Counted from the stretch's first letter, positions 1 to 54,070 are shown. The stretch: 64,000 nt of DNA from an uncultured delta proteobacterium (GCA_963745835.1 CAVUZH010000003.1:512001-576000), one strand, 5' to 3'. A program made the numbers and translations. The notes: generated from the letters alone by a model not told the origin.

Positions 1-1636
1 TCGCAAAGCAGCGCGCTACGTCGCCTGGCGCGCGCAGGTTGCTGGTGCGCAAGGGGATCGGTTCGGGAAAGTGCCAGTTAACCAGGTGAGCAAGAATTCG
101 CTGGTTGGGCACAGCGTAAATTTCGCCGCCGCTTTGGCTACCGTTGTTGCCACCGGGATTCGTCGGTTGCATTCCGACCTGCAGCGATGCGAGCAGCGGC
201 GTCGACCCCGACGCCGTCCATGGCTGGCCGTAATCGGTGAAATCCCAGGCGACAAGCCGGCCTTCGCCGTCAATCGCTGCTTTGGCTTCGTCGAGTTGTG
301 CTGGACCCTTGGGCTCCCAACCATGTTCATCATGCCTTGACCACTGCACGCGCACAGGCGCGCCGACGGCGCGTGACAACAACGCCGCATCTTCGGCGCC
401 GTCATCGGTGCTCATGCGGCCGTACGATCCCGACGCTTCGTGGTAGATGATGCGCACGTTCTGCTCCGGGATACCGAGGAGTTTCGCCACGGTGCTGCGC
501 GTTCTGAACGGCCCCTGCGGGCCGGACCAGATGGTCGCCTTATCGCCTTTGACATCAGCTATGGCGCAGGAAGGGCCGATCATCCCATGCATTTGAAACG
601 GCCAGCGGAAGCTTCCCTGGTAGGTCTTTTGCGCCTTTGCCAGCGCATCGGTTGCATTACCTTTATCGATGGCTTTGGTCGTGCGCACCGGCTTGGTGTT
701 TTTCAAATAGGCAAAAACTTCGTCCGGGGTTGCCGGCACTTTACTCGTCGGCTTGGACCAGGTGACTTTTAGAGTTTGCGACGCTTTGATCGCGGCCCAT
801 TCGGTTTTGGCAACCACGCCGACGAATTTCCCCTCCCGCGCGATCATGACCACGCCTGGAATTCCCTTGATGGAATCATTATCGATGCTCACGGGCTCGG
901 TGTTGATCACGGGAGGGCGCACGACTCTGCCGTGCAGCATGTTCGGAATGCGCACGTCATGAATGTAGTCATGCTCACCGGTGACCTTCGCCGGCAACTC
1001 GACACGTTTGACCGACTGGCCGACCACTTTGTATTGCTTGGGGTCCTTGGCCTTCACCTCCGGCGCGACTTTCATGTCCCAGCCGGTGCCCGTCGCGGTG
1101 ATTTTGGTATTGAATTTTTTGCCGCCGATCAGCTGGCCGTAGGAAACTTTCTTTCCGGGCGCGCCGGCAACACTCACCACGCCTTCGGTGACCGTCAACC
1201 TTTCCACCGGCGTGTTAAGGCGCACCCCTGCAAGCTTGAGTAATTCCTGGCGCGCGGCGGCGGCCGCCTGGCGGACCTGCGGCCCGGCGCGCTCGATAGT
1301 CCGGCTGCCGACGGTGGATCCCTGCTCAATCGATGTAGACGTGTCGCCCTGCACCATTTGTATTTTGGCAAAAGGGACGTCGAGCTCTTCGGCCACGATC
1401 TGCGCGAGAGCGGTGATCGTGCCGGTGCCGAGTTCCACTTTGCTGGTGTAGAAAGTAACCAACCCGTCCGGAGTGATGGCGAGCCAGGAATCGAGAGAAG
1501 TCGGATCGATGTCGCCGGATGGAAGGGTGGCGAACTGGGCCAGGGCTTTGCGCGCTGGGCTGAATAAATTGAAGCTGACGACGAGAGCGCCGGTGGTTTT
1601 GAGAAATTGCCTGCGAGTGATCTCCATGGTTTTCAT
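1..1636 (-). CDS. Molybdopterin-binding oxidoreductase large subunit (xanthine dehydrogenase family, IorB/NicB-like); runs off the left window edge
   Basis: Not in the ORF track. Read on the minus strand from ATG at 1636 (AGGAG upstream): MKTMEITRRQFLKTTGALVVSF (twin-arginine signal), then SKVELGTG, QGDTSTSIEQGSTVGSRTI and MLHGRVVRPP, typical of this family; directly downstream of a 2Fe-2S subunit gene. Confidence 0.85.
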   Translation of the reverse strand, partial: MKTMEITRRQFLKTTGALVVSFNLFSPARKALAQFATLPSGDIDPTSLDSWLAITPDGLVTFYTSKVELGTGTITALAQIVAEELDVPFAKIQMVQGDTSTSIEQGSTVGSRTIERAGPQVRQAAAAARQELLKLAGVRLNTPVERLTVTEGVVSVAGAPGKKVSYGQLIGGKKFNTKITATGTGWDMKVAPEVKAKDPKQYKVVGQSVKRVELPAKVTGEHDYIHDVRIPNMLHGRVVRPPVINTEPVSIDNDSIKGIPGVVMIAREGKFVGVVAKTEWAAIKASQTLKVTWSKPTSKVPATPDEVFAYLKNTKPVRTTKAIDKGNATDALAKAQKTYQGSFRWPFQMHGMIGPSCAIADVKGDKATIWSGPQGPFRTRSTVAKLLGIPEQNVRIIYHEASGSYGRMSTDDGAEDAALLSRAVGAPVRVQWSRHDEHGWEPKGPAQLDEAKAAIDGEGRLVAWDFTDYGQPWTASGSTPLLASLQVGMQPTNPGGNNGSQSGGEIYAVPNQRILAHLVNWHFPEPIPLRTSNLRAPGDVARCFA

Positions 1637-6442: not shown

Positions 6443-7093
6443 TCAGGTCTTGCTTGCCGCGGTAGATGCCGCTTCGTATTCGGGCGTTCCCTTGGCCGGA
6501 ATTGTCCAGTAATAAACTGTGCTCCCGCCAGCGTTCAATGTCTGCTGCGGTTTCCAAGTGCCCATGTCGAAAGCGTGCGAGACAATACGGGTCCCTGGCT
6601 TTAGTTCAGATAACAGTTTTGGCAGCAATTTTAGATTGAGGCTAGGCAGTAAGTAGAGCGTAACGACGGTTGCCTCGCTGATATCCGCTTGAAACAAGTC
6701 CTCGTTGAGGAAACGCACGCGGTCGCCGACGCCGGCGGCCTTGTGATTAGCCTGAGCTTCCTTGATACGGTCGGGATTGATGTCGATGCCGACGGCGCGC
6801 GCCGCATTGTACTTCTGCACCGCCATGATCGGGATGCGCCCGTCGCCCGAACCTAAATCATAGACTACGTCCTCCTTGCCGACCTTGGCAACTTTGAGCA
6901 TCGCGTCCACGGTTTCAGCGGGTGTTGGAACGTACACGACATCGGGCGAGCGAAGCTGCTTCTCCGCGGTCGTGCCTTTCGGCGCGGACCCCGGCTGCTG
7001 GTCCTGGGCGCTTGCGTAAGAGCCATCAATTGAAAGTGCCAATGCGAGCACGTACGACAATTTAAGAATTTTCACCGATTCCTCCTTGTTCAT
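6443..7093 (-). CDS. Class I SAM-dependent methyltransferase with probable signal peptide
   Basis: PDVVYVPTP, VYDLGSGDGRI, GIDIN and ATVVTLYLLP motifs; N-terminal hydrophobic stretch ending ASA-QD. Confidence 0.88.
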   Translation of the reverse strand: MNKEESVKILKLSYVLALALSIDGSYASAQDQQPGSAPKGTTAEKQLRSPDVVYVPTPAETVDAMLKVAKVGKEDVVYDLGSGDGRIPIMAVQKYNAARAVGIDINPDRIKEAQANHKAAGVGDRVRFLNEDLFQADISEATVVTLYLLPSLNLKLLPKLLSELKPGTRIVSHAFDMGTWKPQQTLNAGGSTVYYWTIPAKGTPEYEAASTAASKT

Positions 7094-7251
7094 GTATGAC
7101 GTTGTTGAGCATTGAATCTAGACTGTGCCTCGGAGCTCATGAGAATATAACCTTAAAAGAAGAGTACCGATAGATTGTGCAGCTCTTTTTCACTTGCTGG
7201 GAAAATCTTGGAGAGATGGGTCTGCTGGTCCGAGGAGAATGCCGATCAACC

Positions 7252-7689
7252 CTATGAACTCTGCGGGTTCAGAGTGAGTCCCTGTCCTGTCACTACAATA
7301 TGTTGTCCCTGGGCGTAGAAGTCTCCGGTGAACTCCCAAGCATTTTCTTTGAGACTTAAGTCGATGGCATTTTTCCCATGCCTGTCGGTTACGACTATGC
7401 GCTCAGGAGGATTGTGGTTGGGCGGAAGCGATTGCACCGAGTAAAAATTATCCTTGTTGAATTCGATTGCGTTGCTGCGAATTCTGGCGACTAAACCTCC
7501 ATCGGCATCTGACAGGTCAGCATTCAAGAATGCGCCACCTGCTTTGAATTCAACCCACACTGACTGAGTCGGGGGCGGCAATGTGGCGCCAATCACGACA
7601 CCTCCTGCATCATTGAGGCCGATGATCGTGAAATCACCTTCACATAGAAACCGGTTGCTGCCAAACTTTATGCTGGTCGATTGCGCCAA
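7252..7689 (-). CDS. Hypothetical protein (beta-rich)
   Basis: Open frame with GGAGG upstream of TTG at 7689; no family motif recognised. Confidence 0.55.
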   Translation of the reverse strand: MAQSTSIKFGSNRFLCEGDFTIIGLNDAGGVVIGATLPPPTQSVWVEFKAGGAFLNADLSDADGGLVARIRSNAIEFNKDNFYSVQSLPPNHNPPERIVVTDRHGKNAIDLSLKENAWEFTGDFYAQGQHIVVTGQGLTLNPQSS

Positions 7690-15581: not shown

Positions 15582-16798
15582 CTTGGCTCGAGTCAACTGG
15601 AAAAGGCTGGGGCCGTTTGCTACCTGTGGCTCTGCTGTTGCTGTTCGCGCTAGCGGCATGTGGCGGCGATCAATCAGCCACTGCCGTGATCGAAAGCTCG
15701 CCGCCGCCGCGCCAGGTAAAAATCGCTACAGCGGTGGAGGCCAAAGTGGCCCGCACGGTGAGCGCCACCGGAACGCTGGCGGCCGAAGATCAAGTTGTCC
15801 TGGGCACCAAAGTCGTCGGCCGGCTCGGTGAGATCTCGGTCGATCTCGGCAGCCGCGTGCGCAAAGGCCAGGCGATTGCGCGCATCGACCCCAGCGATTA
15901 CCGGCTGCGCGTGGATCAAGCCGAGGCTGCTCTTCAGCAAGCCCGAGTTCGTCTCGGGCTCCCGGCCGAAGGGACCAGCGATAAGATCGAACCCGAGCAA
16001 ACAGCGACCGTGCGTCAGGCGGCGGCTACTCTCAAGGAAGCTCGCTTGACCCACGATCGCATGACGAAACTGTGGGAAAATAATTACATCGCGCGCGCTG
16101 AGCTCGACGCTGCGGTGGCGCAATTGGCGATTGCCGAAAGCCAGTACCAGAATGCCCTCGAAGAAGTGAGAATCCGCCAGGGGCTTCTGTTTCAACGTCG
16201 TTCAGAGCTCGAGATCGCGCGCCAGCAACTCGCCGACACGATCATTGCTTCGCCCATGGACGGTGCCGTTAGCGAACGTCAAGCCTCAGTCGGGCAGTAT
16301 CTGGCTGCCGGTGCGTCGGTAGTCACCCTGGTGCGCATGGATCCGTTACGTTTGCGGCTGGCGGTGCCCGAGCGACAGGCCGGAACCGTGCGTGTCGGCC
16401 AGGCGGTAGAGCTTACGGTCGAAGGCGATAGCCGGCGGTATTCCGGGCGGGTTGTCCGCTTATCTCCGGCGATCAGTGAGAACAACCGAACATTACTGAT
16501 CGAGGCTGAAGTGCCCAATAGGGAGGGCCGACTGCGCCCCGGGTCTTTCGCCAAAGGCGATATTATCGTCGAAGCCGGGGAGCAGATCGTTACCGTGCCA
16601 CGCGATGCGATCATCACTTTTGCGGGTATCGATAAGGTTTTGAGCGTGGAAGAGGGGCAAGCTGTGGAAAAGCGGGTGCGTACCGGACGTCGTATAGGTG
16701 ACCAGATCGAAATCGTCGAAGGCGTTGCCGCGGGTTATCAAGTCATCGTCGATCCGGGAAATTTGGTTGCAGGGCAGCCCGTGAAGGTTGTGAACTGA
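15578..16798 (+). CDS. RND efflux periplasmic adaptor (membrane fusion protein), lipoprotein
   Basis: Lipobox LAAC; VDLGSRVRKGQ, IASPMDGAV, LRPGSFA; ATGA overlap with TetR gene. Confidence 0.93.
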   Translation: MTWLESTGKGWGRLLPVALLLLFALAACGGDQSATAVIESSPPPRQVKIATAVEAKVARTVSATGTLAAEDQVVLGTKVVGRLGEISVDLGSRVRKGQAIARIDPSDYRLRVDQAEAALQQARVRLGLPAEGTSDKIEPEQTATVRQAAATLKEARLTHDRMTKLWENNYIARAELDAAVAQLAIAESQYQNALEEVRIRQGLLFQRRSELEIARQQLADTIIASPMDGAVSERQASVGQYLAAGASVVTLVRMDPLRLRLAVPERQAGTVRVGQAVELTVEGDSRRYSGRVVRLSPAISENNRTLLIEAEVPNREGRLRPGSFAKGDIIVEAGEQIVTVPRDAIITFAGIDKVLSVEEGQAVEKRVRTGRRIGDQIEIVEGVAAGYQVIVDPGNLVAGQPVKVVN

Positions 16799-25214: not shown

Positions 25215-25961
25215 TCATGTGGTTTCTCGGTTCAAGCGCAGCATCGCGGCTCTCAGGCTCGAGCGCATCCGTTCAAGAGAACGCGCCAATTCACCGATTT
25301 CGTCGCGCGAGACGACACAGTTGCCGATCGACATTTCGAGGTCGCCTTTGGTTACCTTATCGGCCACTTCAGTTAGACCGATGATCGGTCGAACAATCCA
25401 GTTGGCGATAACAAAAGAGAGCGCCGCGCCGACAATCGGAACGAGCGCAATGACGCCGATCATAGGCCAGATAAAGCTTTGTACTTCCTTGTCCACCGCG
25501 TCGCTCCAGAACCCCACATGGGCAGTTCCCGCTTGTCCGTCGAGAACTGGAACGCTTGTCTCATAGACAGTTTTTTCCTGTAGCGACAAAGTCCGGCGCT
25601 GTGCTTCACGTGGACTTCCGGCGCTAGCTCCTTGGCGCAGTTGCTGCGGAAAAGAACCCAGCGTTTGGGCAATGACTTCGCCGCGCGCATCATTGATGTA
25701 AACGTAGGCCACTCCTTCAAAAAGAGTGTATTTCGCAGCCAACGCATGAAGCGCGAGCTGATTCTTACTGACTATATGACCGGCAGCGGCATCGCTGAAA
25801 TTGGTCGCGATGGCGAGAGCGCGCTTGTCGAGTTGCTCTCGCATCGCTGTTCTCGTTAGCTGATAGAGTGCCGCTATCAAAAGGAGTCCCAAGATAAGCA
25901 TGACCGCCGTATAAACTCCGCCGATCTTCCATTTCAAGCTGACGCCTGATTCTGCAGCCAT
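25215..25961 (-). CDS. Two-TM HAMP-domain membrane protein without output domain
   Basis: TM1, ~130-aa extracytoplasmic domain, TM2, HAMP (IVRPIIGLTEVADKVTKGDL...RDEIGELARSLERMR), then stop; no kinase, cyclase or MCP domain. Confidence 0.85.
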   Translation of the reverse strand: MAAESGVSLKWKIGGVYTAVMLILGLLLIAALYQLTRTAMREQLDKRALAIATNFSDAAAGHIVSKNQLALHALAAKYTLFEGVAYVYINDARGEVIAQTLGSFPQQLRQGASAGSPREAQRRTLSLQEKTVYETSVPVLDGQAGTAHVGFWSDAVDKEVQSFIWPMIGVIALVPIVGAALSFVIANWIVRPIIGLTEVADKVTKGDLEMSIGNCVVSRDEIGELARSLERMRSSLRAAMLRLNRETT

Positions 25962-41280: not shown

Positions 41281-41340
41281 TTCGCGCATGCCTGACACAA
41301 ACATTTCTCAGATTGATATCACTCATCCCTGAAGCCATGG

Positions 41341-41360
41341 AGATTCAAGACGCGGACCCC
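41341..41360 (+). repeat. Island repeat R1
   Basis: AGATTCAAGACGCGGACCCC (one extra G relative to R2/R4). Confidence 0.8.
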
Positions 41361-41557
41361 TAATCCTGAATCGCGCCTTCCGCGCATCGCTCAAGATCAC
41401 GAGGCGACGCCAATTATGCTGGCGTGAACCATCAAAACAATAGTGAACAACGCTCGCGATAGCAAAGCTGAGCCCCAGATCATTATTCACCCCGAACTAT
41501 TTTCCTCCATCGTACCGAAATCATTGCGGGCATGCCGCTGGCATGCTACCGTTAAAT

Positions 41558-41791
41558 ATGGCCAATATTCAAGTTAAAAATATTCCCGAGAAACTGCACA
41601 ATCAGCTTCGTCGCTATGCCCGGGAGAAGGGCTGCACCCTGGGAGAGATCATTTTAAAAGCCATCGAGCGAGAGGTGTCGCGGCGAGAATGGCAGAAACG
41701 TTTTTTGGGCCGGCCTTCGACGCAGCTTCGTAGCTCGGCGGCTAAGCTGCTCGAGGAAGAACGCCGGCATCGCGACAGTGATCTTCTGTGA
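41558..41791 (+). CDS. RHH (FitA/VapB-like) antitoxin
   Basis: MANIQVKNIPEKLHNQLRRYA ribbon-helix-helix pattern; GTGA overlap with the PIN toxin gene. Confidence 0.85.
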   Translation: MANIQVKNIPEKLHNQLRRYAREKGCTLGEIILKAIEREVSRREWQKRFLGRPSTQLRSSAAKLLEEERRHRDSDLL

Positions 41792-42183
41792 GTCGCTATG
41801 TTATCGACGCCTCCGCGGCCGTGGAGTACCTTCTTCGAACATCATTGGGGCTCAAAGTTGCTAACATCGTTGAAGATGGTCTCTTATTGGCCCCTGAGTT
41901 ATTGGATGTGGAAGTGCTCTCGGTTCTAAGACGCGCTGTATTGCGCCGGGAGGTTGACGAGCAGCGCGCATTGCGCGCCATCGAAGATCTTATGAGTTGG
42001 CCTATCGATCGTATTCCTCATACATCGCTCCTTTGGGCAGCATGGCAACACCGCACTAATGTGAGCGCTTATGATGCGTTTTATGTAGCGGCAGCAAGTC
42101 TATGTGACGCGCCGCTTATTACCGCGGATGGTCCACTTTCGCGTGCGCCTTCGCTTGGAATTGTGGTTGAGAACGTACGATAA
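41788..42183 (+). CDS. vapC: PIN-domain (VapC) toxin
   Basis: YVIDASA, APELLDVEV, SAYDAFYVAAA, PLITAD acidic PIN residues. Confidence 0.92.
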   Translation: MSRYVIDASAAVEYLLRTSLGLKVANIVEDGLLLAPELLDVEVLSVLRRAVLRREVDEQRALRAIEDLMSWPIDRIPHTSLLWAAWQHRTNVSAYDAFYVAAASLCDAPLITADGPLSRAPSLGIVVENVR

Positions 42184-42346
42184 GCCGCGACTGGATCGGT
42201 GAGCCGCCAAATCGAGCCGAGAAAAGGCTTTTATGTCCTTCATCGTGGGGTCCAATTGCGCCCATATTCCGCCGGAAACGCTATCTGAGGCGGCGATAGT
42301 TAAGAAAGGCTCGAACTTGAATTCAGGCGTGCAGGTTAAGTGGACA

Positions 42347-42370
42347 TCAAGATTCAAGACGCGACCCCAA
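42347..42370 (+). repeat. Island repeat R2
   Basis: TCAAGATTCAAGACGCGACCCCAA, identical to R4. Confidence 0.9.
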
Positions 42371-42379
42371 CGCGCCTCA

Positions 42380-43324
42380 ATGATGTTGGCGGTGGGATTC
42401 TTATTATCTTTCGCCGTCGGCGGCTATTCTGCCGAGCTCAGAAAACTCAGCCTGGCGTATTCCACAGTAGGTCCGTCAGGAACCGGATTGTGGATGGCCA
42501 AGGAGATCGGTGCCTTTGAGAAATATGGCATCAACGCTGATCTGATTTTTATTTCTTCCGGCCCGGTGGTCGTTCAGGCGCTGATCGGCGGTGACCTTCA
42601 CGGCGGGTTGGCGGCGACCAATGCGGTGATATCGGCAGTGATGGCGGGTGCTCCACTGGTCTCGGTGATGAGTCTGGTTAACCGTCCCTACTTTCGACTG
42701 TGGGTACAGCCGGAGATTACCCGGATAGAGGATCTGCGCGGCAAGACTTTGGGCGTTTCCCGATTCGGATCCGTGACTGACAATCTGACGCGGATTTTGC
42801 TTCGCAAACAAGGGTTGGAGGGCGCGGTCAACGTGCGGCAAATGGGCGGCACGGCAGAAATGTCGGTCGCGTTTGGGCGCCGGCAAATTGCTGGCGCCGT
42901 CTTAGCGGTGCTGCGTGTGGATGCGCCGATGAGGATGCTCGTGGATCTGGATGAACTGGGGATCCAGTACTCCAACGTTGTGATTGCAGTACCTCAAGAC
43001 TTTTACCGCCGATCTTCACTGGCCGTGGAAGGAATGGTACGGGGGTATCTTGAAGGTGTCGCCGCGGTAAACCAACAGAAGGAAATGGCATTCAAGGTGA
43101 TCGCGAAATATACCCGCCTTAAGGAGCCGAAGTTAATCGAGGAACTTTATAACGACGCAGTTAAATTTTTGGATCGCGCACCACGGGTGGAACAAGAAGC
43201 GATTGCGCCGATTGTGGAATTCATGGGCAAGAAGCCCATTTCAGTCGACGCCATCGCCGATAATAGCATCATAGATAAGCTCGTGCGTGAAGGTTTTATC
43301 GATCGACTTTACAGGAAACGTTAA
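42380..43324 (+). CDS. NMT1/SsuA-like substrate-binding protein; start uncertain because R2 is in frame upstream
   Basis: LWMAKEIGAFEKYGINADL, LRGKTLGVSRFGSVTD. Confidence 0.85.
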   Translation: MMLAVGFLLSFAVGGYSAELRKLSLAYSTVGPSGTGLWMAKEIGAFEKYGINADLIFISSGPVVVQALIGGDLHGGLAATNAVISAVMAGAPLVSVMSLVNRPYFRLWVQPEITRIEDLRGKTLGVSRFGSVTDNLTRILLRKQGLEGAVNVRQMGGTAEMSVAFGRRQIAGAVLAVLRVDAPMRMLVDLDELGIQYSNVVIAVPQDFYRRSSLAVEGMVRGYLEGVAAVNQQKEMAFKVIAKYTRLKEPKLIEELYNDAVKFLDRAPRVEQEAIAPIVEFMGKKPISVDAIADNSIIDKLVREGFIDRLYRKR

Positions 43325-43674
43325 GTGGACTTCTGCATCCACGCTCGTCGGGGTTCGAAAAACTCGACAGACAACCTCGCTTTGCCGACTGAACCCAAAC
43401 GATTTTCAATCGGTGAAGAGTTAGGTGAAAATCGTATAATCTGTCGTCTTGAAACATGTAGGGAAGACGTAGAACAATCAATGCTCGTACTATGCGTTGG
43501 TTGATCGCTAGGCTAAGTTCTAACTTGTTTGATCGTTTTGACCCTCACTTCCACGCTTCCGATCCTAGACTTGGTCAGTGTATAATCCGTCCCATGACTT
43601 GTTCAGGACGATATCTAAAGCGCTGTCACAGTCGACGTCCTTGAGTCTTGATAGATGAAAGGTTGCAGTTCCCT

Positions 43675-43914
43675 GTGAGTCCAACTGTCTTTCGTGTTAA
43701 AGGTTATCGATTCTTTTTTTTCTCTCGCGAGGAGTCCCGGATTCACGTGCACATATATTGCGGTGACGGCGAGGCAAAATTTTGGCTCGAACCTCAAGTT
43801 GAATTAGCGGTAAACTCGCGCCTGTCGCGTCGCCAGATCAAAGAAATCGAAGAAATCATCGAGGATCGTTACGATGAACTTAAGCATGCCTGGAACAAAC
43901 ATTTCTCCGGTTGA
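43675..43914 (+). CDS. DUF4160 protein (DhiT-like toxin)
   Basis: SPTVFRVKGYRFFFFSREESRIHVHI...AKFWLEP...WNKHF. Confidence 0.88.
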   Translation: MSPTVFRVKGYRFFFFSREESRIHVHIYCGDGEAKFWLEPQVELAVNSRLSRRQIKEIEEIIEDRYDELKHAWNKHFSG

Positions 43915-44134
43915 AATTACCCACATCTCAAGCCATGGAGTCTGGCTTTTGGCTAACGGTCACGAGTTGTTTATGTCGTATGATGACTTCCCATGGTTTA
44001 AGGATGTACCAGTAGGCAAGATTCTAAACGTCGAACAACCGACGCCGGGTCATTTTTATTGGCCCGATTTGGACGTGGATTTAAGCGAGGAGATCATTAG
44101 TCATCCCGAACGGTTTCCGCTGAAAGCAAAGTAG
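43886..44134 (+). CDS. DUF2442 protein (DhiA-like antitoxin)
   Basis: SYDDFPWF...HFYWPDLDVDLS...PERFPL; overlaps the DUF4160 gene. Confidence 0.88.
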   Translation: MPGTNISPVEITHISSHGVWLLANGHELFMSYDDFPWFKDVPVGKILNVEQPTPGHFYWPDLDVDLSEEIISHPERFPLKAK

Positions 44135-44185
44135 GTATCGACCCGCATGATCACCGGTACTTCGTCGCCGTGCTAATGTTTATTC

Positions 44186-44419
44186 ATGGCCAATATTCAA
44201 GTTAAAGATATTCCCGAGAGACTGCACAATCAGCTTCGTCGCTATGCCCAGGAGAAAGGCTGCACACTTGGAGAGATCATTGTAGAAGCCATCAAGCGAG
44301 AGGTGTCGCGGCGGGAATGGCACAAGGGTTTGTTGAGCCGTCCGTCAACGCAGCTTCGAAGCTCGGCCGCTCAGTTGCTCGAGGAAGACCGCCGACAGCG
44401 CGACAGTGATGCTACATAA
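44186..44419 (+). CDS. Orphan RHH antitoxin, paralog of 41558-41791
   Basis: 62/77 identical residues by manual alignment; no PIN gene follows. Confidence 0.82.
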   Translation: MANIQVKDIPERLHNQLRRYAQEKGCTLGEIIVEAIKREVSRREWHKGLLSRPSTQLRSSAAQLLEEDRRQRDSDAT

Positions 44420-44511
44420 ACGCACCAGAGTGCTGGGGTGCTATACAATGCAGCGCAGTCGCGGTCAGAAGAAGCAATACTGGAAGGAGGTGGGGGCGTC
44501 AATAGAAGGTT

Positions 44512-44529
44512 AAGATTCAAGACGCGACC
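44512..44529 (+). repeat. Island repeat R3
   Basis: AAGATTCAAGACGCGACC. Confidence 0.85.
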
Positions 44530-44620
44530 GTCAAAGGACAATGAGCCGATGGCGCGGTTCGTGATGAATGATTCCATCTTTGCGAGACGCTCAGTGGCTA
44601 TTCATTAGTGCACATCAAAT

Positions 44621-45094
44621 ATGAACACGCTCACGCCATCAGTTGCTCAATTTGACGGCAGTTTGCTCCGCAGAGGATTTTGGGTTTACGTTGTCGAGAT
44701 AGCTAGCATGTCACGCAAGCACTATTATGTCGGCCGGACTGGCGACACTTCATCTCCATTTGCTTCGTCGCTCTTCGACCGACTTTCCGCACATCTTAAT
44801 CAAAAGCCATCTGCAAAAGGAAATTCGCTTTACAAGAGATTCCTAACGAGCTTGATTGCACCGAATGTATACCGTGTCATTTGTAACGGTCCGCAGTTCG
44901 AGCAGCAAGTAAATATGGCTTCGCACCGACCCTTGCGCGACCAAATGGCTGCTCTTGAGAGTCATGTCGCTGAACTTTTGCGGTCGCGACGCTACTCCGT
45001 CATTGGCGCGCATCCTCGCGCTAGACCAGCTGACGCAGCTCTTCTGGAAAGAGTGCTGCCAATTATCGATAAGCATTTTCCAGGTGCAGGCTAA
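44621..45094 (+). CDS. GIY-YIG-like nuclease domain protein
   Basis: GFWVYVV...YYVGRTG...RLSAHL, with a later ALE Glu, matching the GIY-YIG motif order. Confidence 0.55.
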   Translation: MNTLTPSVAQFDGSLLRRGFWVYVVEIASMSRKHYYVGRTGDTSSPFASSLFDRLSAHLNQKPSAKGNSLYKRFLTSLIAPNVYRVICNGPQFEQQVNMASHRPLRDQMAALESHVAELLRSRRYSVIGAHPRARPADAALLERVLPIIDKHFPGAG

Positions 45095-45155
45095 ACATGC
45101 CTGGCAGGGTCGTGAACCAAGGGTTGTGTTCTCTATTGTTGCGTCTTTTCGTTGG

Positions 45156-45494
45156 GCAATATGTACAATTTGCTGACCATCATAAATTCGTCTGTTCAAC
45201 CTCCTGCATAGCGGGTGACCAGCTTCCTCAAAAAGGCATGAATCTGATTTCTTGGGACAGATCTATCGGTGAAATCTAGGCTAGATTTGAATGCTGACCA
45301 GCACGATAGAAGAAAGCGGACGGAAACGAAAACCTTAAGACATACAGACTGTCGCTCGACCATAAGAAATGGCTAACACGAAACCAGTTTCAGATCGTGA
45401 GGCACCAATAATGGGCCATAAAATTTAGTCCGCCGATCAGCCATATTAGATCATGAAAGAAGAGCATCGACAGCGGATGAAACAGATCGTGAGA
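45156..45494. repeat. Non-coding homology block A (partner at 48688-48982)
   Basis: Collinear shared segments: exact ATCATAAATTCGTCTGTT, GCATAGCGG.TGACCA, TGATTT(G)CTTGGGAC, ATTTG.ATGCT.AC.AGCACG, CAGATCGTGAGA. Confidence 0.7.
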
Positions 45495-45652
45495 GCTAGA
45501 TTGCCGATAGACGATCACGGCGCGGTTTTTCTAGGCAAGCCAAAAGCGATGAGAGGATCGATATAATTTGTACAAATCGGAAGATACGTTGTGGTTAGCG
45601 TGCAAGGAAAATCAGATTTTACGGGATTTTCGAAATCCGCTGATGGCCAACG

Positions 45653-45676
45653 TCAAGATTCAAGACGCGACCCCAA
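45653..45676 (+). repeat. Island repeat R4
   Basis: TCAAGATTCAAGACGCGACCCCAA. Confidence 0.9.
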
Positions 45677-45715
45677 CCCGCAACTTTTGTCCTTCGAGCG
45701 GCGGCCCGCTGTTTT

Positions 45716-46475
45716 TTAGCCAATCTTCTTGACTCCTTCTCGCAACGTAATTTCAATTGTGCCGTCGGGTAGCTTCCTTTCGACATAGGGAGGCTCATAG
45801 GCGAAAAGTTTCCTGTAGAGGGCGGATGAGAATAAGACGCTGATGACTACAACGATAGCAACAACGACAAAGATTCCTGACTAAGAAGTCGGGCTCGGCA
45901 CAACGGATCAAAGTGTGCGCAACGGCTCATACCGGAGGCTCGCGATGGCACGTCCAACAAGGATGTAACGAGGAAAAACCCAACGATCAGCATGGACCAC
46001 CACTCTGCCTCGAATATTCTACCCACAGGGGAGCCTTTGGGGGGCTTCAGCCAAAGCAAGACCGGGGTGATGGCAAATATCCCCGCGGTGAACAGCAACC
46101 CGTAGGCGCACAGCATTGCGAGGACAATCACAGCTACGTATGCGACTGTCTCGACAGATCGATATATCCCCGCTGCCGCAAGCATCAGTATAGTAGCACG
46201 CACGAGAAACAGAGTGATTTTGAAGTCGACTTGAGCGAGGTGCCAGCGGCGCACGTCCCAGACTGCATGACGAAATCGATCGTGCATCGTGTCAGCGCGT
46301 AGATGATGCCGCAAGCTAGGATCAACGGTACTGAGGCATTAGATAGATCTACGGTGCCTGCCGGACCCGCGTCTAGCGATTTGACGTCTAACTGTGCTGC
46401 GGACCAAGCCAGGGCGATACCGCAAAGTACAGACGTGTTCCTCCTCGATCGACGGTAGGCGTCGGATATTTCCAC
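45716..46475 (-). pseudogene. Frameshifted multi-TM membrane protein gene
   Basis: AGGAGG RBS and GTG at 46475; protein-like hydrophobic sequence continues across three frames (MEISDAYRRSRRN.. / ..VRRWHLAQVDF.. / ..GIFVVVAIVVVISVLFSSALYRKLFAYEPPYVERKLPDGTIEI..KKIG-stop). Confidence 0.65.
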
Positions 46476-46782
46476 AATGGACCTCCTAAGGTCATGTAAT
46501 GTGTGTGTTAAGAATAGATACTAAACAAGCCGCACTTCTCAGCTGCCAAATTCGTCACCCAATGTGCATCGTCGCGGGTTAAAGCTCATCGTTTCGTCAT
46601 GAATTCGTCTTGACACTACCATAGCACAGCATACTTTACGCATCTGTTTTAACGCCGGGAAGATGTCGCCGCGACGGCCCGGTGAGTACTGTTCTGCCTT
46701 CGCGATATCGCATGCGACCGTCTGCCATTTCGCCACATCACGTGGCGTGCTGAAGCAACCAAGACTAAACTAGAGGCATCCT

Positions 46783-48569
46783 ATGGCCACACCGAGTCCA
46801 CTGTTAGCGCTGTTCAAAGAACAACTGGAAGCCGAGTGCGAATCGTTGGCAAAAAAGCATGGACTAAAGAACCGTGGCGATTTCTTGGTCTACTGGTATT
46901 TCATTCGTCTGTATGAGTTTACGGATGTAGAGGTTGAGGAAATAGCCTGCGACGGCGGAGGCGACTTGGGAATCGATGCGATATGGATCGATGATGAAGC
47001 ATTAGTTCATTTTTACAATTTCAAGAATCCCGAGGACCCAGCTAAGGGGTTCCCTGCTGGCGAAGTCGATAAGACGATTTCCGGCTTGCAAGTGATCCTT
47101 AGTAAAAAACATGACCAAATCGCCAACTCGGAGTTAAAGGCTCGGCTAGATGAAGTTTACCAGCAGTTGCCGAAGGGCTACCGAGTACACTTTATAACTA
47201 GCGGCGAAGGGATCTCACATGAATCCAAGGTAAAACTCGACGCCTTCGTCGATTCGCTCAAAGGGCCATCTAACAGCCTTGTTTCATGGGATGAACAGCC
47301 CCTAAGCCAGCTTCAAGAGCAGTTTTATCAACAGAGCCTTTGCGGTAAAGATCTTAAGGTTTCGGCTGCCAGCCGCGCCGTACATGTTGCGATCCGGCGT
47401 AGCGGATGCCAATCTTACATCCAGCGGCGAAATGCTTGCCGATCTTTATGGAAAGCATGGGGAAGGGTTGCTGCAACGCAATATCCGAGTTGATCAGCGC
47501 GAAACTGCTACGAACAGATCTATCGAAGCAACTTGTACGGGCGACGACTCGAAGAATTTTCTTCATTTCAACAATGGAGTGACCTTTCTAGGAAAGCGGC
47601 AGCCCAGTGATGACAAAGCCGCGTACTGAAAAAGCTCAGTGGTGAACTTCGGAGAAGGGGTTCACTATCTCGCAAAAAAGGGTCCCAAGAATGTCATCTT
47701 TTTTGGCAAGGGCTATCATTTTCAGCGGTGATAAGACTTTGAGAACAATGTCGCGGTGAATCAAAATAACCAGAATCCGGTAGGCACTGGCTTCTTGCGA
47801 TCGAATGACCAAAGAGTTGTTCAGCTCGACCATGCCCTCGCATCGCGTGGCTGGTATCTGGAGCGGAGAGAAGGGGAACTAAAGAGCGCCACACCTGAGG
47901 AACTTGAAACTATCCAGAGACGGATTGGTCATTCCTGTAAAAGAGAAAGATTCGGTTGAAAGACGGTGCTCAAGCTTATACCGCATCGTTCTATCAAAAG
48001 CGAAATCGAAAAAAAACCGAAGAAGATCTTCTTATCAGTCGAGGACGGGGGCAACTACGAAAGAATCTTTTCCGTTGATATGACAGCGGAGAAGATGATC
48101 ATAGCTCATGAGATTAAGACCGTCGTGGATGATTTTGTCCGAAAGTTCGCGGCCATCCGTCATAAACTCCAAACCTCGAAAAAATTCAAGCTGCAAACGA
48201 GGATGCTCTAGGAATGCAGTTTGGTACGCAGACCTCATCGAAGAGATCCATCAAGTCATGGCGCAGTGCTCGCTATTTCTTTGCGGAACAATCTTCAAGG
48301 ATCTGGTGGATTTACGGCGGAACGCTGCTTCTCTGATACCAGGTATTTTGAAGGATGAAGGAACCGCGCTGATTCAGGAGCATCTGCTCCATATTATCGA
48401 TTATGCCAAGAGCAACAAGGATAAAGCCGATAGAAGCTGGCCGGTCCTTCTTAAAAGCAATACTTTCTTTAATTATATCACAGCATACCTTGCAGGTGTC
48501 CGCGGATCGCCGACAGTATCCGGCTCGCGTCCCAATAAGGGAAAAAAAACGGACAGTAGAAAGAAATGA
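46783..48569 (+). pseudogene. AIPR family (abortive-infection phage resistance-associated) protein, multiply frameshifted
   Basis: N-terminal DGGGDLGIDAIWID; LLQRNIR, FLHFNNGVT and NQNNQNPVGTGFLRSND motifs spread over several short ORFs. Confidence 0.8.
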
Positions 48570-48604
48570 TAGATGTCATTTAGAACGGCAACGAGGCTGC
48601 CAAC

Positions 48605-48625
48605 GGGGTCAGGCTCGCTATTCTT
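48605..48625 (-). repeat. Inverted variant of the island repeat (R5)
   Basis: GGGGTCAGGCTCGCTATTCTT; reverse complement AAGAATAGCGAGCCTGACCCC shares AAGA..GACCCC with R1-R4. Confidence 0.45.
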
Positions 48626-48687
48626 GGTCTCCTCGAAAGCTGTCGGTATAATATTTTGATCCGCGGCGGAGGGCGCACGTGGCTTGC

Positions 48688-48982
48688 GCAATATACACAA
48701 TTTACAAACTGGAGATCATAAATTCGTCTGTTAACAAACCCCGCATAGCGGCTGACCACGTTCCACAAGAATGCACGGTTTCGATGCCGAAAGGCATTGG
48801 TGTAGGAGCAATCACTTGCGCCGTGAGTGAGCGAGATCGGATCTGTCCGCTTGTGATTTGCTTGGGACGGAATCTGTGTATGGATCGGTAAAACCTAGGC
48901 GTGAGAAATTTCTGTTCTCTCGGCAATTTGTATGCTAACGAGCACGTTGGTAGAACCGGATCATGGAAACCAGATCGTGAGA
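48688..48982. repeat. Non-coding homology block B
   Basis: Collinear homolog of 45156-45494, differing by indels. Confidence 0.7.
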
Positions 48983-53668: not shown

Positions 53669-54070
53669 TTAATTCCAGACCGTAACGGTCAAGTTTCCTT
53701 CCGAAGTAAGCGCATCCGCTGTGATCAACGGGCAGCGAAGTTGTCGAGCTGTGGCAACGATTACTCTGTCAGCGGGATCGCGAATGGCGGCAAGTGAAAC
53801 GGATTCTAGCAAGATTTCAATCGTGTAGGATTGCACCTGAAAGTTAGCGGAACGATCTAGCGCCTCCGCTCAGCGGCGGAACGGTACCGATAGCTGAACG
53901 ACTTTCTTTTCAATCAAACGCGCCGTCTCTTCGAGCACGATGATGGGAACCGCAATCGAATGTTTTCCACTCTCTGCTTCTTGAAAAATTCGCCGTGCCC
54001 TCTTGCCGAGCCGATTCTTCCGATCGGAGGCCCAAAAGATCAGGGAGTGCGTGTCCGTAACGTAAATCAC
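53669..54070 (-). pseudogene. vapC: PIN-domain (VapC) toxin interrupted by a single in-frame TGA
   Basis: YVTDTHSLIFW...FRR-TGA(53870-53872)-AEALDRS...IRDPADRVIVATARQLRCPLITAD...VWN-stop, all in one frame (134 codons). Confidence 0.85.

Follow-up and report, generated by a model that had tools for sequence, protein, structure and literature searches.

The stretch examined here (hereafter the window) comprises 64,000 nucleotides of one strand of the genome of an uncultured delta proteobacterium (GCA_963745835.1, CAVUZH010000003.1:512001-576000), and our subject is an array of toxin–antitoxin (TA) and other accessory genes at 41,341 to 48,982 that is punctuated by four copies of a 20-base motif, R (AAGATTCAAGACGCGACCCC). 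A preliminary description, made from the sequence alone, had interpreted R as the site of a dedicated integron-like platform for gene capture. We find instead that R is the conserved terminal inverted repeat (TIR) of TIRtrons, elements of ~0.9 kb whose sole gene encodes TIRYT, a single-strand DNA transposase of the Y1/HUH type that resembles RAYTs and ends in a helix-turn-helix (HTH), and not a new kind of site; the copies in the window are orphan ends. The array lies in a small gene-turnover hotspot between a diaminopimelate (DAP)-dehydrogenase-like gene and an ABC binding-protein gene. The window's own genome is referred to as G000, and other genomes and loci by G and L codes.

A search of the 64 kb with the 20-mer, allowing up to three mismatches, returned four matches, all on the + strand, against 0 in 100 shuffles used as a control. 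R2 (42349..42368) and R4 (45655..45674) match without mismatch, R3 (44512..44531) has two mismatches at its outer end, which closes with CCGT, and R1 (41340..41359) is the weakest copy, with three mismatches and one extra G. The identity of R2 and R4 that had been noticed earlier extends over 27 nt (42346-42372 and 45652-45678), and the repeat family to which they belong (D2) is identical at 30/32 positions. For scoring, a 24-nt weight matrix was built from 15 of the 20 motif copies found in the search of relatives; this training set includes R2 itself and two copies from unpublished genomes (G012, G018), and leaves out L012 and L016 (probable chance matches) and L011, L018 and L026 (near-duplicates). 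Only R1-R4 score above 8 in the window (16.7, 34.9, 21.3 and 34.2, respectively), with none on the - strand and one for the reversed matrix, in agreement with the earlier impression that the motif occurs nowhere else in the 64 kb. The degenerate copies (~41391 and ~41459) and the inverted variant (48605) described earlier did not hold up, as all score below 0 with this ungapped matrix; by eye, the sequence near 41391 aligns to R at ~20/25 positions with one gap. Across the whole assembly (7,276,699 bases), nine sites score above 18, compared with one for the reversed matrix, and sites outside the window lie on contig 15 (three, within 25 kb), contig 13 (three) and contig 18 (one). The clustering in the window is real, because there are only about nine such sites in the genome and the rough probability that four of them fall inside 4.3 kb is 1e-7.

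Genes were called as simple open reading frames (ORFs) and domains assigned with Pfam and NCBIfam; all features of the array given here are on the + strand. At the left edge, a fragment paralogous to the DUF4160 3' end/DUF2442 5' end (41286..41342; 81% to 43884-43940, repeat family D3) abuts the inner edge of R1. A 134-nt patch starting with R1 (41343..41476) replaces ~152 nt of the interior of the DUF2442 paralogue, and in the alignment similarity to the DUF2442 3' end is back at ~41477. R1 sits inside this disrupted DUF2442 gene, and at least one copy of R has disrupted a gene. There follow a ribbon-helix-helix (RHH) antitoxin and a PIN/VapC toxin (41558-41791 and 41788-42183; Pfam, the RHH being FitA-like and below the Pfam cut-off) and what is left of another DUF2442-type gene, distinct from the first and reduced to a decayed 3' end (42241..42345; 78-83% to intact genes in G063 and G054), directly after which comes R2. 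The NMT1/THI5-like periplasmic binding protein to the right of R2 (42380..43324; Pfam) begins 11 nt beyond the repeat and has a signal-peptide-like N-terminus. Between it and R3 are an intact DUF4160 and DUF2442 pair (43648-43914 and 43874-44134; Pfam) and an orphan RHH antitoxin (44186..44419; DNA 89% to 41558-41782, repeat family D1) with no toxin gene after it, R3 itself lying ~90 nt past the orphan gene.

Pfam has in this way upheld the earlier reading of the cargo for both RHH genes, the PIN gene, the NMT1-type binding protein and DUF4160/DUF2442. The gene described as GIY-YIG-like is a 157-aa ORF of unassigned family (44621..45094) with no Pfam or NCBIfam match, for which a language model gave a weak lead to GIY-YIG (rank 9, score 0.94), and the 'membrane protein' ORF of the right-most interval had no family match. 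Of the AIPR-like pseudogene (46783..48569, several frames), two weak PF10592 fragments in different frames were all that could be recovered, neither reaching the cut-off (E 3.8e-5 and 7.8e-4). R4 is flanked on its left by segment M (45431..45651), non-coding or decayed, whose homologue in G004 and G001 is 74-79% identical; its 37-aa ORF had no Pfam match, and a methyltransferase-tail reading was made by eye only. A GC-rich hairpin followed by a T run, resembling an intrinsic terminator by eye, lies just right of R4 (45690-45720, + strand). A local direct repeat, family D6 (45152..45238 with 48684-48775; 76% identity across 93 nt, including 18 nt that match exactly), is unrelated to R and found nowhere else in the genome, its copies following the 157-aa ORF and the AIPR pseudogene. 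Further along the window, a second PIN-domain gene (53714-54064, - strand) contains an in-frame TGA and is probably a pseudogene.

The second copies of families D3 (57 nt, 81%) and D1 (225 nt, 89%) keep the order of the first and lie 2598 and 2628 nt away, and from this alignment 41286-42368 and 43884-44531 read as paralogous copies of one module consisting of DUF4160/DUF2442, RHH, (VapC) and R. The position of R3 corresponds to that of R2 in the module minus ~465 nt. Given this shared order and spacing, R2 and R3 probably represent one event that was later copied by a segmental duplication of ~2.6 kb.

The preliminary description had stated that related ends flank genes for Y1 transposases of the REP-associated HUH type, and had suggested a search for such a gene ending in the motif. 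This proved well founded. In G009 (L021), a 285-aa gene is enclosed by inverted R copies at 599-618 (- strand) and 1501-1520 (+ strand), and in G023 (L028) an R end is present only upstream, 35 nt before a 286-aa gene. The L021 protein consists of Pfam Y1_Tnp and a C-terminal HTH (HTH_23/38), and it matches NCBIfam REP_Tyr_transpos at 95.9 bits (cut-off 80), with 18.2 bits against a cut-off of 55 for transpos_IS200. The TIRYT translations contain an HYH motif and, within CRY(I/V)VLNP, a conserved Y.

The same arrangement was found in a cross-phylum scan with one genome per species, which gave 599 candidate stretches and 576 confirmed relatives. Among the best 80 of the 576 loci, 76/80 have a GGGTCNGGTCTT end (up to two mismatches) upstream of the gene, mostly at 43-70 nt and in L114 at 137, the upstream end at TIRYT loci reading GGGGTCAGGTCTTG; 65/80 have an inverse end near the stop codon and 62/80 have both ends, some of the misses lacking flank sequence. 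These best 80 loci span Nitrospirota, Desulfobacterota, Proteobacteria, Binatia, Atribacterota, Bacteroidota, Dehalococcoidia and one candidate-phylum genome. Many of the upstream repeats in L038-L117 hold, by eye, a TTGACA-like hexamer ~45-52 nt before the start codon of the transposase, and therefore the inner part of the upstream repeat may carry the -35 box of the transposase gene.

RAYT-like genes flanked by terminal inverted repeats have been named TIRtrons and their transposases TIRYT, and GGGGWSAS is common to many of these repeats (Di Nocera et al. 2013, PMC3733652); TIR copies are also moderately abundant elsewhere in genomes as singles, dimers or groups. Most TIRYTs fall in TnpA-REP subclass 2.1, with C-terminal HTH domains (Quentin et al. 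2018, PMC6006769). The elements described here agree in the RAYT-like Y1/HUH gene, the C-terminal HTH and terminal inverted repeats beginning GGGG(T)(C)A(G), and the outer end of most of our relatives (GGGGTCAG) fits the published consensus. The window differs in having orphan ends only, in its variant of the outer end (GGGGTCGC, a 7/8 fit to GGGGWSAS with G for A at position 7), and in that its copies are confined to one strand and bound gene blocks, an arrangement that goes unmentioned in the portions of PMC3733652 and PMC6006769 available to us. In a literature search the exact end motifs led to nothing but papers on donkey casein primers, the TIR sequences in the figures and supplements of Di Nocera et al. 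lying outside its coverage. No paper that connects RAYTs with toxin–antitoxin genes and integrons emerged from a search on the three together, Bertels 2017 being checked in part.

Orphan ends are common among relatives (counts for the 41 relatives, the 90 family genomes and the DUF2442 and VapBC homologues include unpublished G012, G018, G051 and G072). The motif is present in 19/41 relatives at 20 loci, two of which have a whole transposase gene, three the first 33-74 codons only, and 15 none within 1.5 kb; the three loci with N-terminal remnants are internally deleted forms resembling miniature inverted-repeat transposable elements (MITEs). Family-wide, 71/90 genomes carry the motif, with 244 matches, compared with 11 when the pattern is reversed, and a copy number of 0-13 per genome, many copies lying at contig ends. 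Inverted doublets also occur, such as that in G047 (L127; 244 nt start to start), to which the L020 doublet in unpublished G012 is equivalent.

As the preliminary description had stated, no integrase or transposase gene is present in the window: all 12 Y1_Tnp matches in G000 lie outside it, as do the 13 Phage_integrase (PF00589) matches. The nearest match to the L021 protein in G000 (54% over 276 residues) is encoded on contig 2 by an intact gene of 297 codons with Y1_Tnp and HTH_23/38 domains, which is flanked by its own GGGGTCAGGTCTTG inverted repeats; this element has a 14-nt core in common with R, with two core positions and the inner part differing. Contig 13 is dense in Y1 transposase genes and remnants at ~581-696 kb (4/12 Pfam matches and further tblastn fragments), and related ends of the AAAGTAAAGACCTGACCCC type occur near this region. 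The three R copies on contig 15 adjoin NYN, NMT1, GST, hydrolase and amidohydrolase genes and not TA genes. One of them, at 16343, sits in a 275-nt stretch in place of which G005 has 47 unrelated nt; another, at 25592, forms an inverted mini pair of 50 nt. Only 15 nt separate this pair from a 448-nt segment that has a second copy on contig 13 (C15:25102-25549 and C13:651001-651448, 97% identical) and is found also in G004 and G005.

Like the terminus of a transposon, the outer CCCC end of R is a sharp one-sided boundary. When five element copies (L020, L021, L022, L024, L028) are compared pairwise, they cease to be similar at the last base of the motif, and in 12/14 same-orientation pairs (11 in relatives, 3 in-window) there is no similarity past the outer end, the shared inner part running for 26-248 nt with a variable truncation point. 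The G063/G054 and window/G063/G054 alignments likewise stop within 3 nt of the outer end.

Within the genus, G006 shares the order fragment-R1-VapBC-R2-binding protein with the window at 93%, and has ~1 kb of other DNA in place of the window's ~5.5 kb (43432 to ~48900). In G004, G001 and G005 (as far as the contig reaches), the DAP-dehydrogenase-like gene is followed by segment M (74-79%), and in G004 and G001 segment M is followed by a decayed repeat and then directly by the binding-protein gene. The repeat in G004 combines the left flank of R4 with the right flank of R2, because segment M precedes it and the binding-protein gene follows. R2 has one mismatch in G006 and three in G004, and its decay in G004 and G001 is at about the neutral rate. 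One of the four genus-level classes of breakpoint falls at a repeat, namely the right boundary of the variable part that precedes the binding-protein gene; the others are its left boundary, just past the flanking gene's stop codon, the two ends of the 5.5-kb insert, and the extra 1 kb of G006. The left junction has, by eye, a few shared bases and is not at a repeat. An inverted partial motif at 43444-43456, at the 43431 breakpoint, was considered and rejected, as the same bases align by eye with ancestral G004 and G006 and with 48905-48920.

These comparisons bear on the integron-like platform, a system in which a dedicated site-specific recombinase would act at a fixed primary site on cassettes that lack promoters and each end in R. 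Between the same two genes, G000 and G006 carry the fragment-R1-VapBC-R2 arrangement and G004, G001 and G005 carry segment M and then the repeat, and therefore the content upstream of a shared repeat varies between species, as would be expected of such a system. The left junction of the variable part, however, lies past the stop codon of the flanking gene and not at a repeat, and no tyrosine recombinase is encoded in the window, the nearest on contig 3 starting at 1,055,933, ~480 kb past the window end. R has neither a hairpin nor attC-like symmetry: DNA folding of 56-nt stretches (R1-R4 on the + strand, and R2 and R4 also on the - strand) gave no stable structure, with z from -0.99 to +0.88. 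In addition, the site is a TIRtron repeat that occurs singly among metabolic genes and as inverted pairs around a transposase gene, R2 and R3 trace to a duplication, R1 lies in a disrupted gene, and cargo is found on either strand relative to R. Integrons resemble the array in having short one-orientation repeats between small accessory genes that include TA pairs, and recombination of single strands is conceivable; the R array differs in lacking IntI, attC symmetry and a fixed attI, and its block edges are mostly off the repeats. Moreover, attC sites are imperfect inverted repeats of 57-141 nt that fold as single strands, whereas R copies share ~24 nt and do not fold. The tests have largely refuted the integron-like platform, to which we now assign the smallest probability of the explanations considered; a new integron-like system is not shown by these data and integron-like capture stays unproven. 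The preliminary description had itself set its proposed site against the ends of an already described kind of element, and such an end is what R proved to be.

Metagenome contigs (four studies, likeness of at least 88%) provide further junctions, most of them represented by a single contig and a few by one contig in each of two runs. The joints may stem from related strains, and 44433-47160 is almost uncovered, which says nothing about absence. One joint runs from the flanking gene to the intact DUF2442 (41280->43909), another from DUF2442 to 81 nt ending in R2 (44137 or 44158 ->42286), and a third connects the RHH gene to a point near R2 without VapC (41786->42320). Two others place breakpoints at the outer end of R: a joint from the end of R2 to the interior of the AIPR pseudogene (42366->47595), and a contig that diverges at 42367. 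There is no R-like sequence in the window at 47595, and therefore the 42366->47595 joint is not homologous recombination between two repeats. Together with the position of R1 in a disrupted gene, the joining of an R end to the interior of the AIPR pseudogene is the behaviour of a transposon end and not of a cassette site.

The DNA just outside R carries a possible trace of this behaviour. A second GACCC is found within 40 nt after R in 20/61 distinct copies (score above 22, with the 80 cross-phylum loci and unpublished loci left out), compared with 2.3% of random 40-nt windows, and the same 4 nt follow both GACCCs in nine of those 20 copies; this suggests a footprint of repeated joining just after GACCCC. 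Individual loci such as L124 (5618-5660), L152/L178 (near 5765), L157, L155 and L018 display a second and sometimes a third GACCC 3-20 nt after the terminal GACCCC. Empty-site comparisons for the contig-15 copies and G011 gave no clean insertion with target duplication.

Same-orientation pairs of R recur in other genera (G011, G017, G019, G049, G052 and others), and 3/5 of the annotated pairs that are 1-2.5 kb apart hold or touch TA-like genes. The G052 pair, whose ParDE locus has no syntenic relative, encloses ParE and an antitoxin; the G011 pair encloses a binding-protein gene, with a HigBA-like pair after it; and the G017 pair includes a DUF6290/UPF0175-like ORF for which both matches are below Pfam cut-offs. 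No Pfam matches were obtained for the G019 and G049 pairs. In G011, an ~100-nt element (L037, G011:C138, 2934-3037) belongs to a separate high-copy family, similar to MITEs or repetitive extragenic palindromic (REP) sequences, with dozens of copies (83-96%) in G011 and G043, and multi-copy repeats of ~156 nt and ~400-460 nt (84-97%) occur across genus g17 genomes at L123 (G081:C2, ~1067-1226 and ~6954-7414).

The preliminary description had proposed comparing strains for precise gain or loss between repeats. A 3.4-kb difference of this sort was seen once, between two other genera, and at the window's own locus the right edge of the variable part is the only edge of that part at a repeat. G054 has the order DUF2442 gene-R-tex, and G063 has DUF2442 gene-R, then 3.4 kb, a 46-nt DUF2442 remnant, and R-tex; the insert ends with an RHH-VapC pair whose proteins are 87% and 80% identical to the pair in the window. 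Judged from the aligned sequences, G054 and G063 differ by the gain or loss of a block from one repeat to the next. In G063 the ends of the block are duplicated over 75 nt, with few differences, which place the crossover left of R, and the event would fit homologous or site-directed recombination in either direction. The gap between the xanthine-dehydrogenase-family gene and tex is hypervariable across the family, at ~1.1 to 4.5 kb (L159 1900-3800, L178-L191), and holds varying mixes of a 227-aa ORF, the DUF2442 gene, R copies and VapBC.

Such cases would also be expected if gene shuffling were driven by the Y1 enzyme. R-ended blocks would then be non-autonomous cargo elements; TIRYT acting in trans would cut a same-oriented pair of R, both on one strand, and the block would leave as a single-stranded circle and be pasted beside another R/GACCCC, giving head-to-tail stacks in which TA genes are carried. 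The same-orientation pairs around TA-like genes in G052 and G011 are consistent with this, as are the contrast between the two R copies of G063 and the single R of G054, the occurrence of the same VapBC-remnant-R block in different contexts in the window and G063, the at least three different right neighbours of the 81-nt R2 block end in metagenome contigs, and the excess of second GACCCs, expected if joining follows GACCCC. The presence of all four window copies on one strand points the same way, but one duplication explains R2 and R3, and the remaining three independent copies would share a strand with a 1-in-4 chance. Other observations are less easily accommodated: the left edges of blocks are not at repeats, the 75-nt ends in G063 suffice for homologous recombination with a crossover outside R, the 150-nt indel between G011 and G043 has R in the middle and not at an edge, no circle junction was seen in the contigs (reads not being included), and any TA enrichment would be read from five pairs picked post hoc. 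Eight other VapBC homologues were examined, with unpublished G051 left out: R lies downstream in G006 and G063 only, upstream and inverted in G083, and nowhere within 1.5 kb in G050, G045, G049, G082 and G077. On balance we consider gene shuffling by the Y1 enzyme rather unlikely, though by a wide measure the most credible of the alternatives.

The neighbourhood of DUF2442-type genes raises a different question, namely whether the host retains R for protein binding, for regulation or as an RNA element, for instance as an operator or a 3'-UTR signal of these genes, with the transposase link being secondary. R follows directly on the stop codon of the intact DUF2442-type gene in G054 and G063 (5 nt past the stop codon in both; the G054 gene matches PF10387 at 51.8 bits), a variant of R follows the gene in G073 and a degenerate one in G002, the position of R2 before the start codon of the binding-protein gene is conserved across the genus, and the 27-nt identity of R2 and R4 would also be in keeping with selection by the host. 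Against this, R is absent downstream of 5/9 DUF2442-type homologues, genes lie in varying orientations to it, neither the window stretch nor any of nine related loci matched an Rfam family, no stable fold was found, the repeat decays in G004 and G001 as a neutral sequence would, and a sharp one-sided boundary is unexpected for an operator. A host element in this sense strikes us as quite improbable.

The explanation we favour, and regard as probable, is that the R copies in the window are orphan TIRtron ends, without a transposase gene, in a gene-turnover hotspot shaped by TIRYT nicking in trans together with ordinary recombination. Each R would be the sharp right edge of a DNA block whose left side was truncated or replaced: R1 would belong to the patch that broke the DUF2442 gene, R2 would end the block of RHH-VapC and the DUF2442 remnant, and R4 would end another decayed block. 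TIRYT supplied in trans, by the contig-2 copy or a lost cognate, would nick single-stranded DNA at or near the outer GACCCC end, yielding insertions, adjacent deletions and repeat-to-repeat rearrangements, with homologous and illegitimate recombination adding the remaining rearrangements. TA genes would be present because TA modules and transposon debris both build up in such hotspots. Nicking in trans is proposed because the chemistry of Y1/HUH transposases is established: these enzymes nick single strands and form a 5'-phosphotyrosine link.

Several observations weigh against orphan ends in a hotspot as a full account. R2 equals R4 over 27 nt even though R2 predates the split of G000 and G006, and it is over-conserved for a neutral relic. 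The same-orientation pairs around TA-like genes in other genera, set beside a total of only 15 PIN matches in G000, hint at more than co-accumulation, but the pairs are a sample picked post hoc without a matched control. The G054/G063 polymorphism suits a site-directed process as well as homologous recombination over the 75-nt ends. Finally, no TIRYT gene in G000 is flanked by the exact AAGATT...GCG variant, and of 12 further GCG-type loci in the family only one has even a transposase remnant.

Comparison with other known systems helps to place these ends. REP/REPIN-RAYT systems are similar in that a domesticated-looking Y1 gene lies between inverted short repeats that are also scattered in intergenic DNA, in the match to REP_Tyr_transpos above cut-off, and in the inverted doublets (244 nt in G047, and the 50-nt mini pair of contig 15). 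Unlike REP sequences, R is not a palindrome, has no hairpin and no GTAG or CGTC tag, and is found at 0-13 copies per genome (~9 in G000) as opposed to tens to hundreds. The IS200/IS605 family has Y1 HUH chemistry in common with TIRtrons; IS608 reads both of its ends on one strand and inserts after a short target sequence, and end reading of this kind would make same-strand R copies natural partners. The ends of this family are, however, subterminal hairpins without terminal inverted repeats, whereas R elements have inverted repeats of 20-25 nt (62/80 loci) and no hairpin. IS91 and ISCR elements are one-ended rolling-circle transposons whose Y2 Rep-like enzymes are encoded beside the constant end; a constant sharp end joined to variable neighbouring DNA and an HUH enzyme are features of both, but here the protein is of the Y1 type and is encoded elsewhere.

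The significance of the locus follows from the family to which its repeats belong. TIRYT/TIRtron elements are widespread, 576 relatives having been confirmed in one scan that extended from Nitrospirota to Proteobacteria, Bacteroidota and candidate phyla, but the family has been little studied. The window and its relatives offer substrates for such work in the form of an end of ~24 nt with a base-sharp one-sided boundary, natural boundary variants and a recurring duplication of the GACCCC tail. If the ends are merely debris, a rule for annotation would follow, in that arrays of this kind are neither integrons nor CRISPR-like. If instead a Y1 enzyme moves blocks between same-strand ends, this would account for some of the gain and loss of TA and defence genes among soil bacteria, and would provide a testable role for 'domesticated' transposases of the RAYT type, a first cargo-carrying function for the RAYT/TIRYT clade, and an integron-like outcome reached by transposase chemistry.

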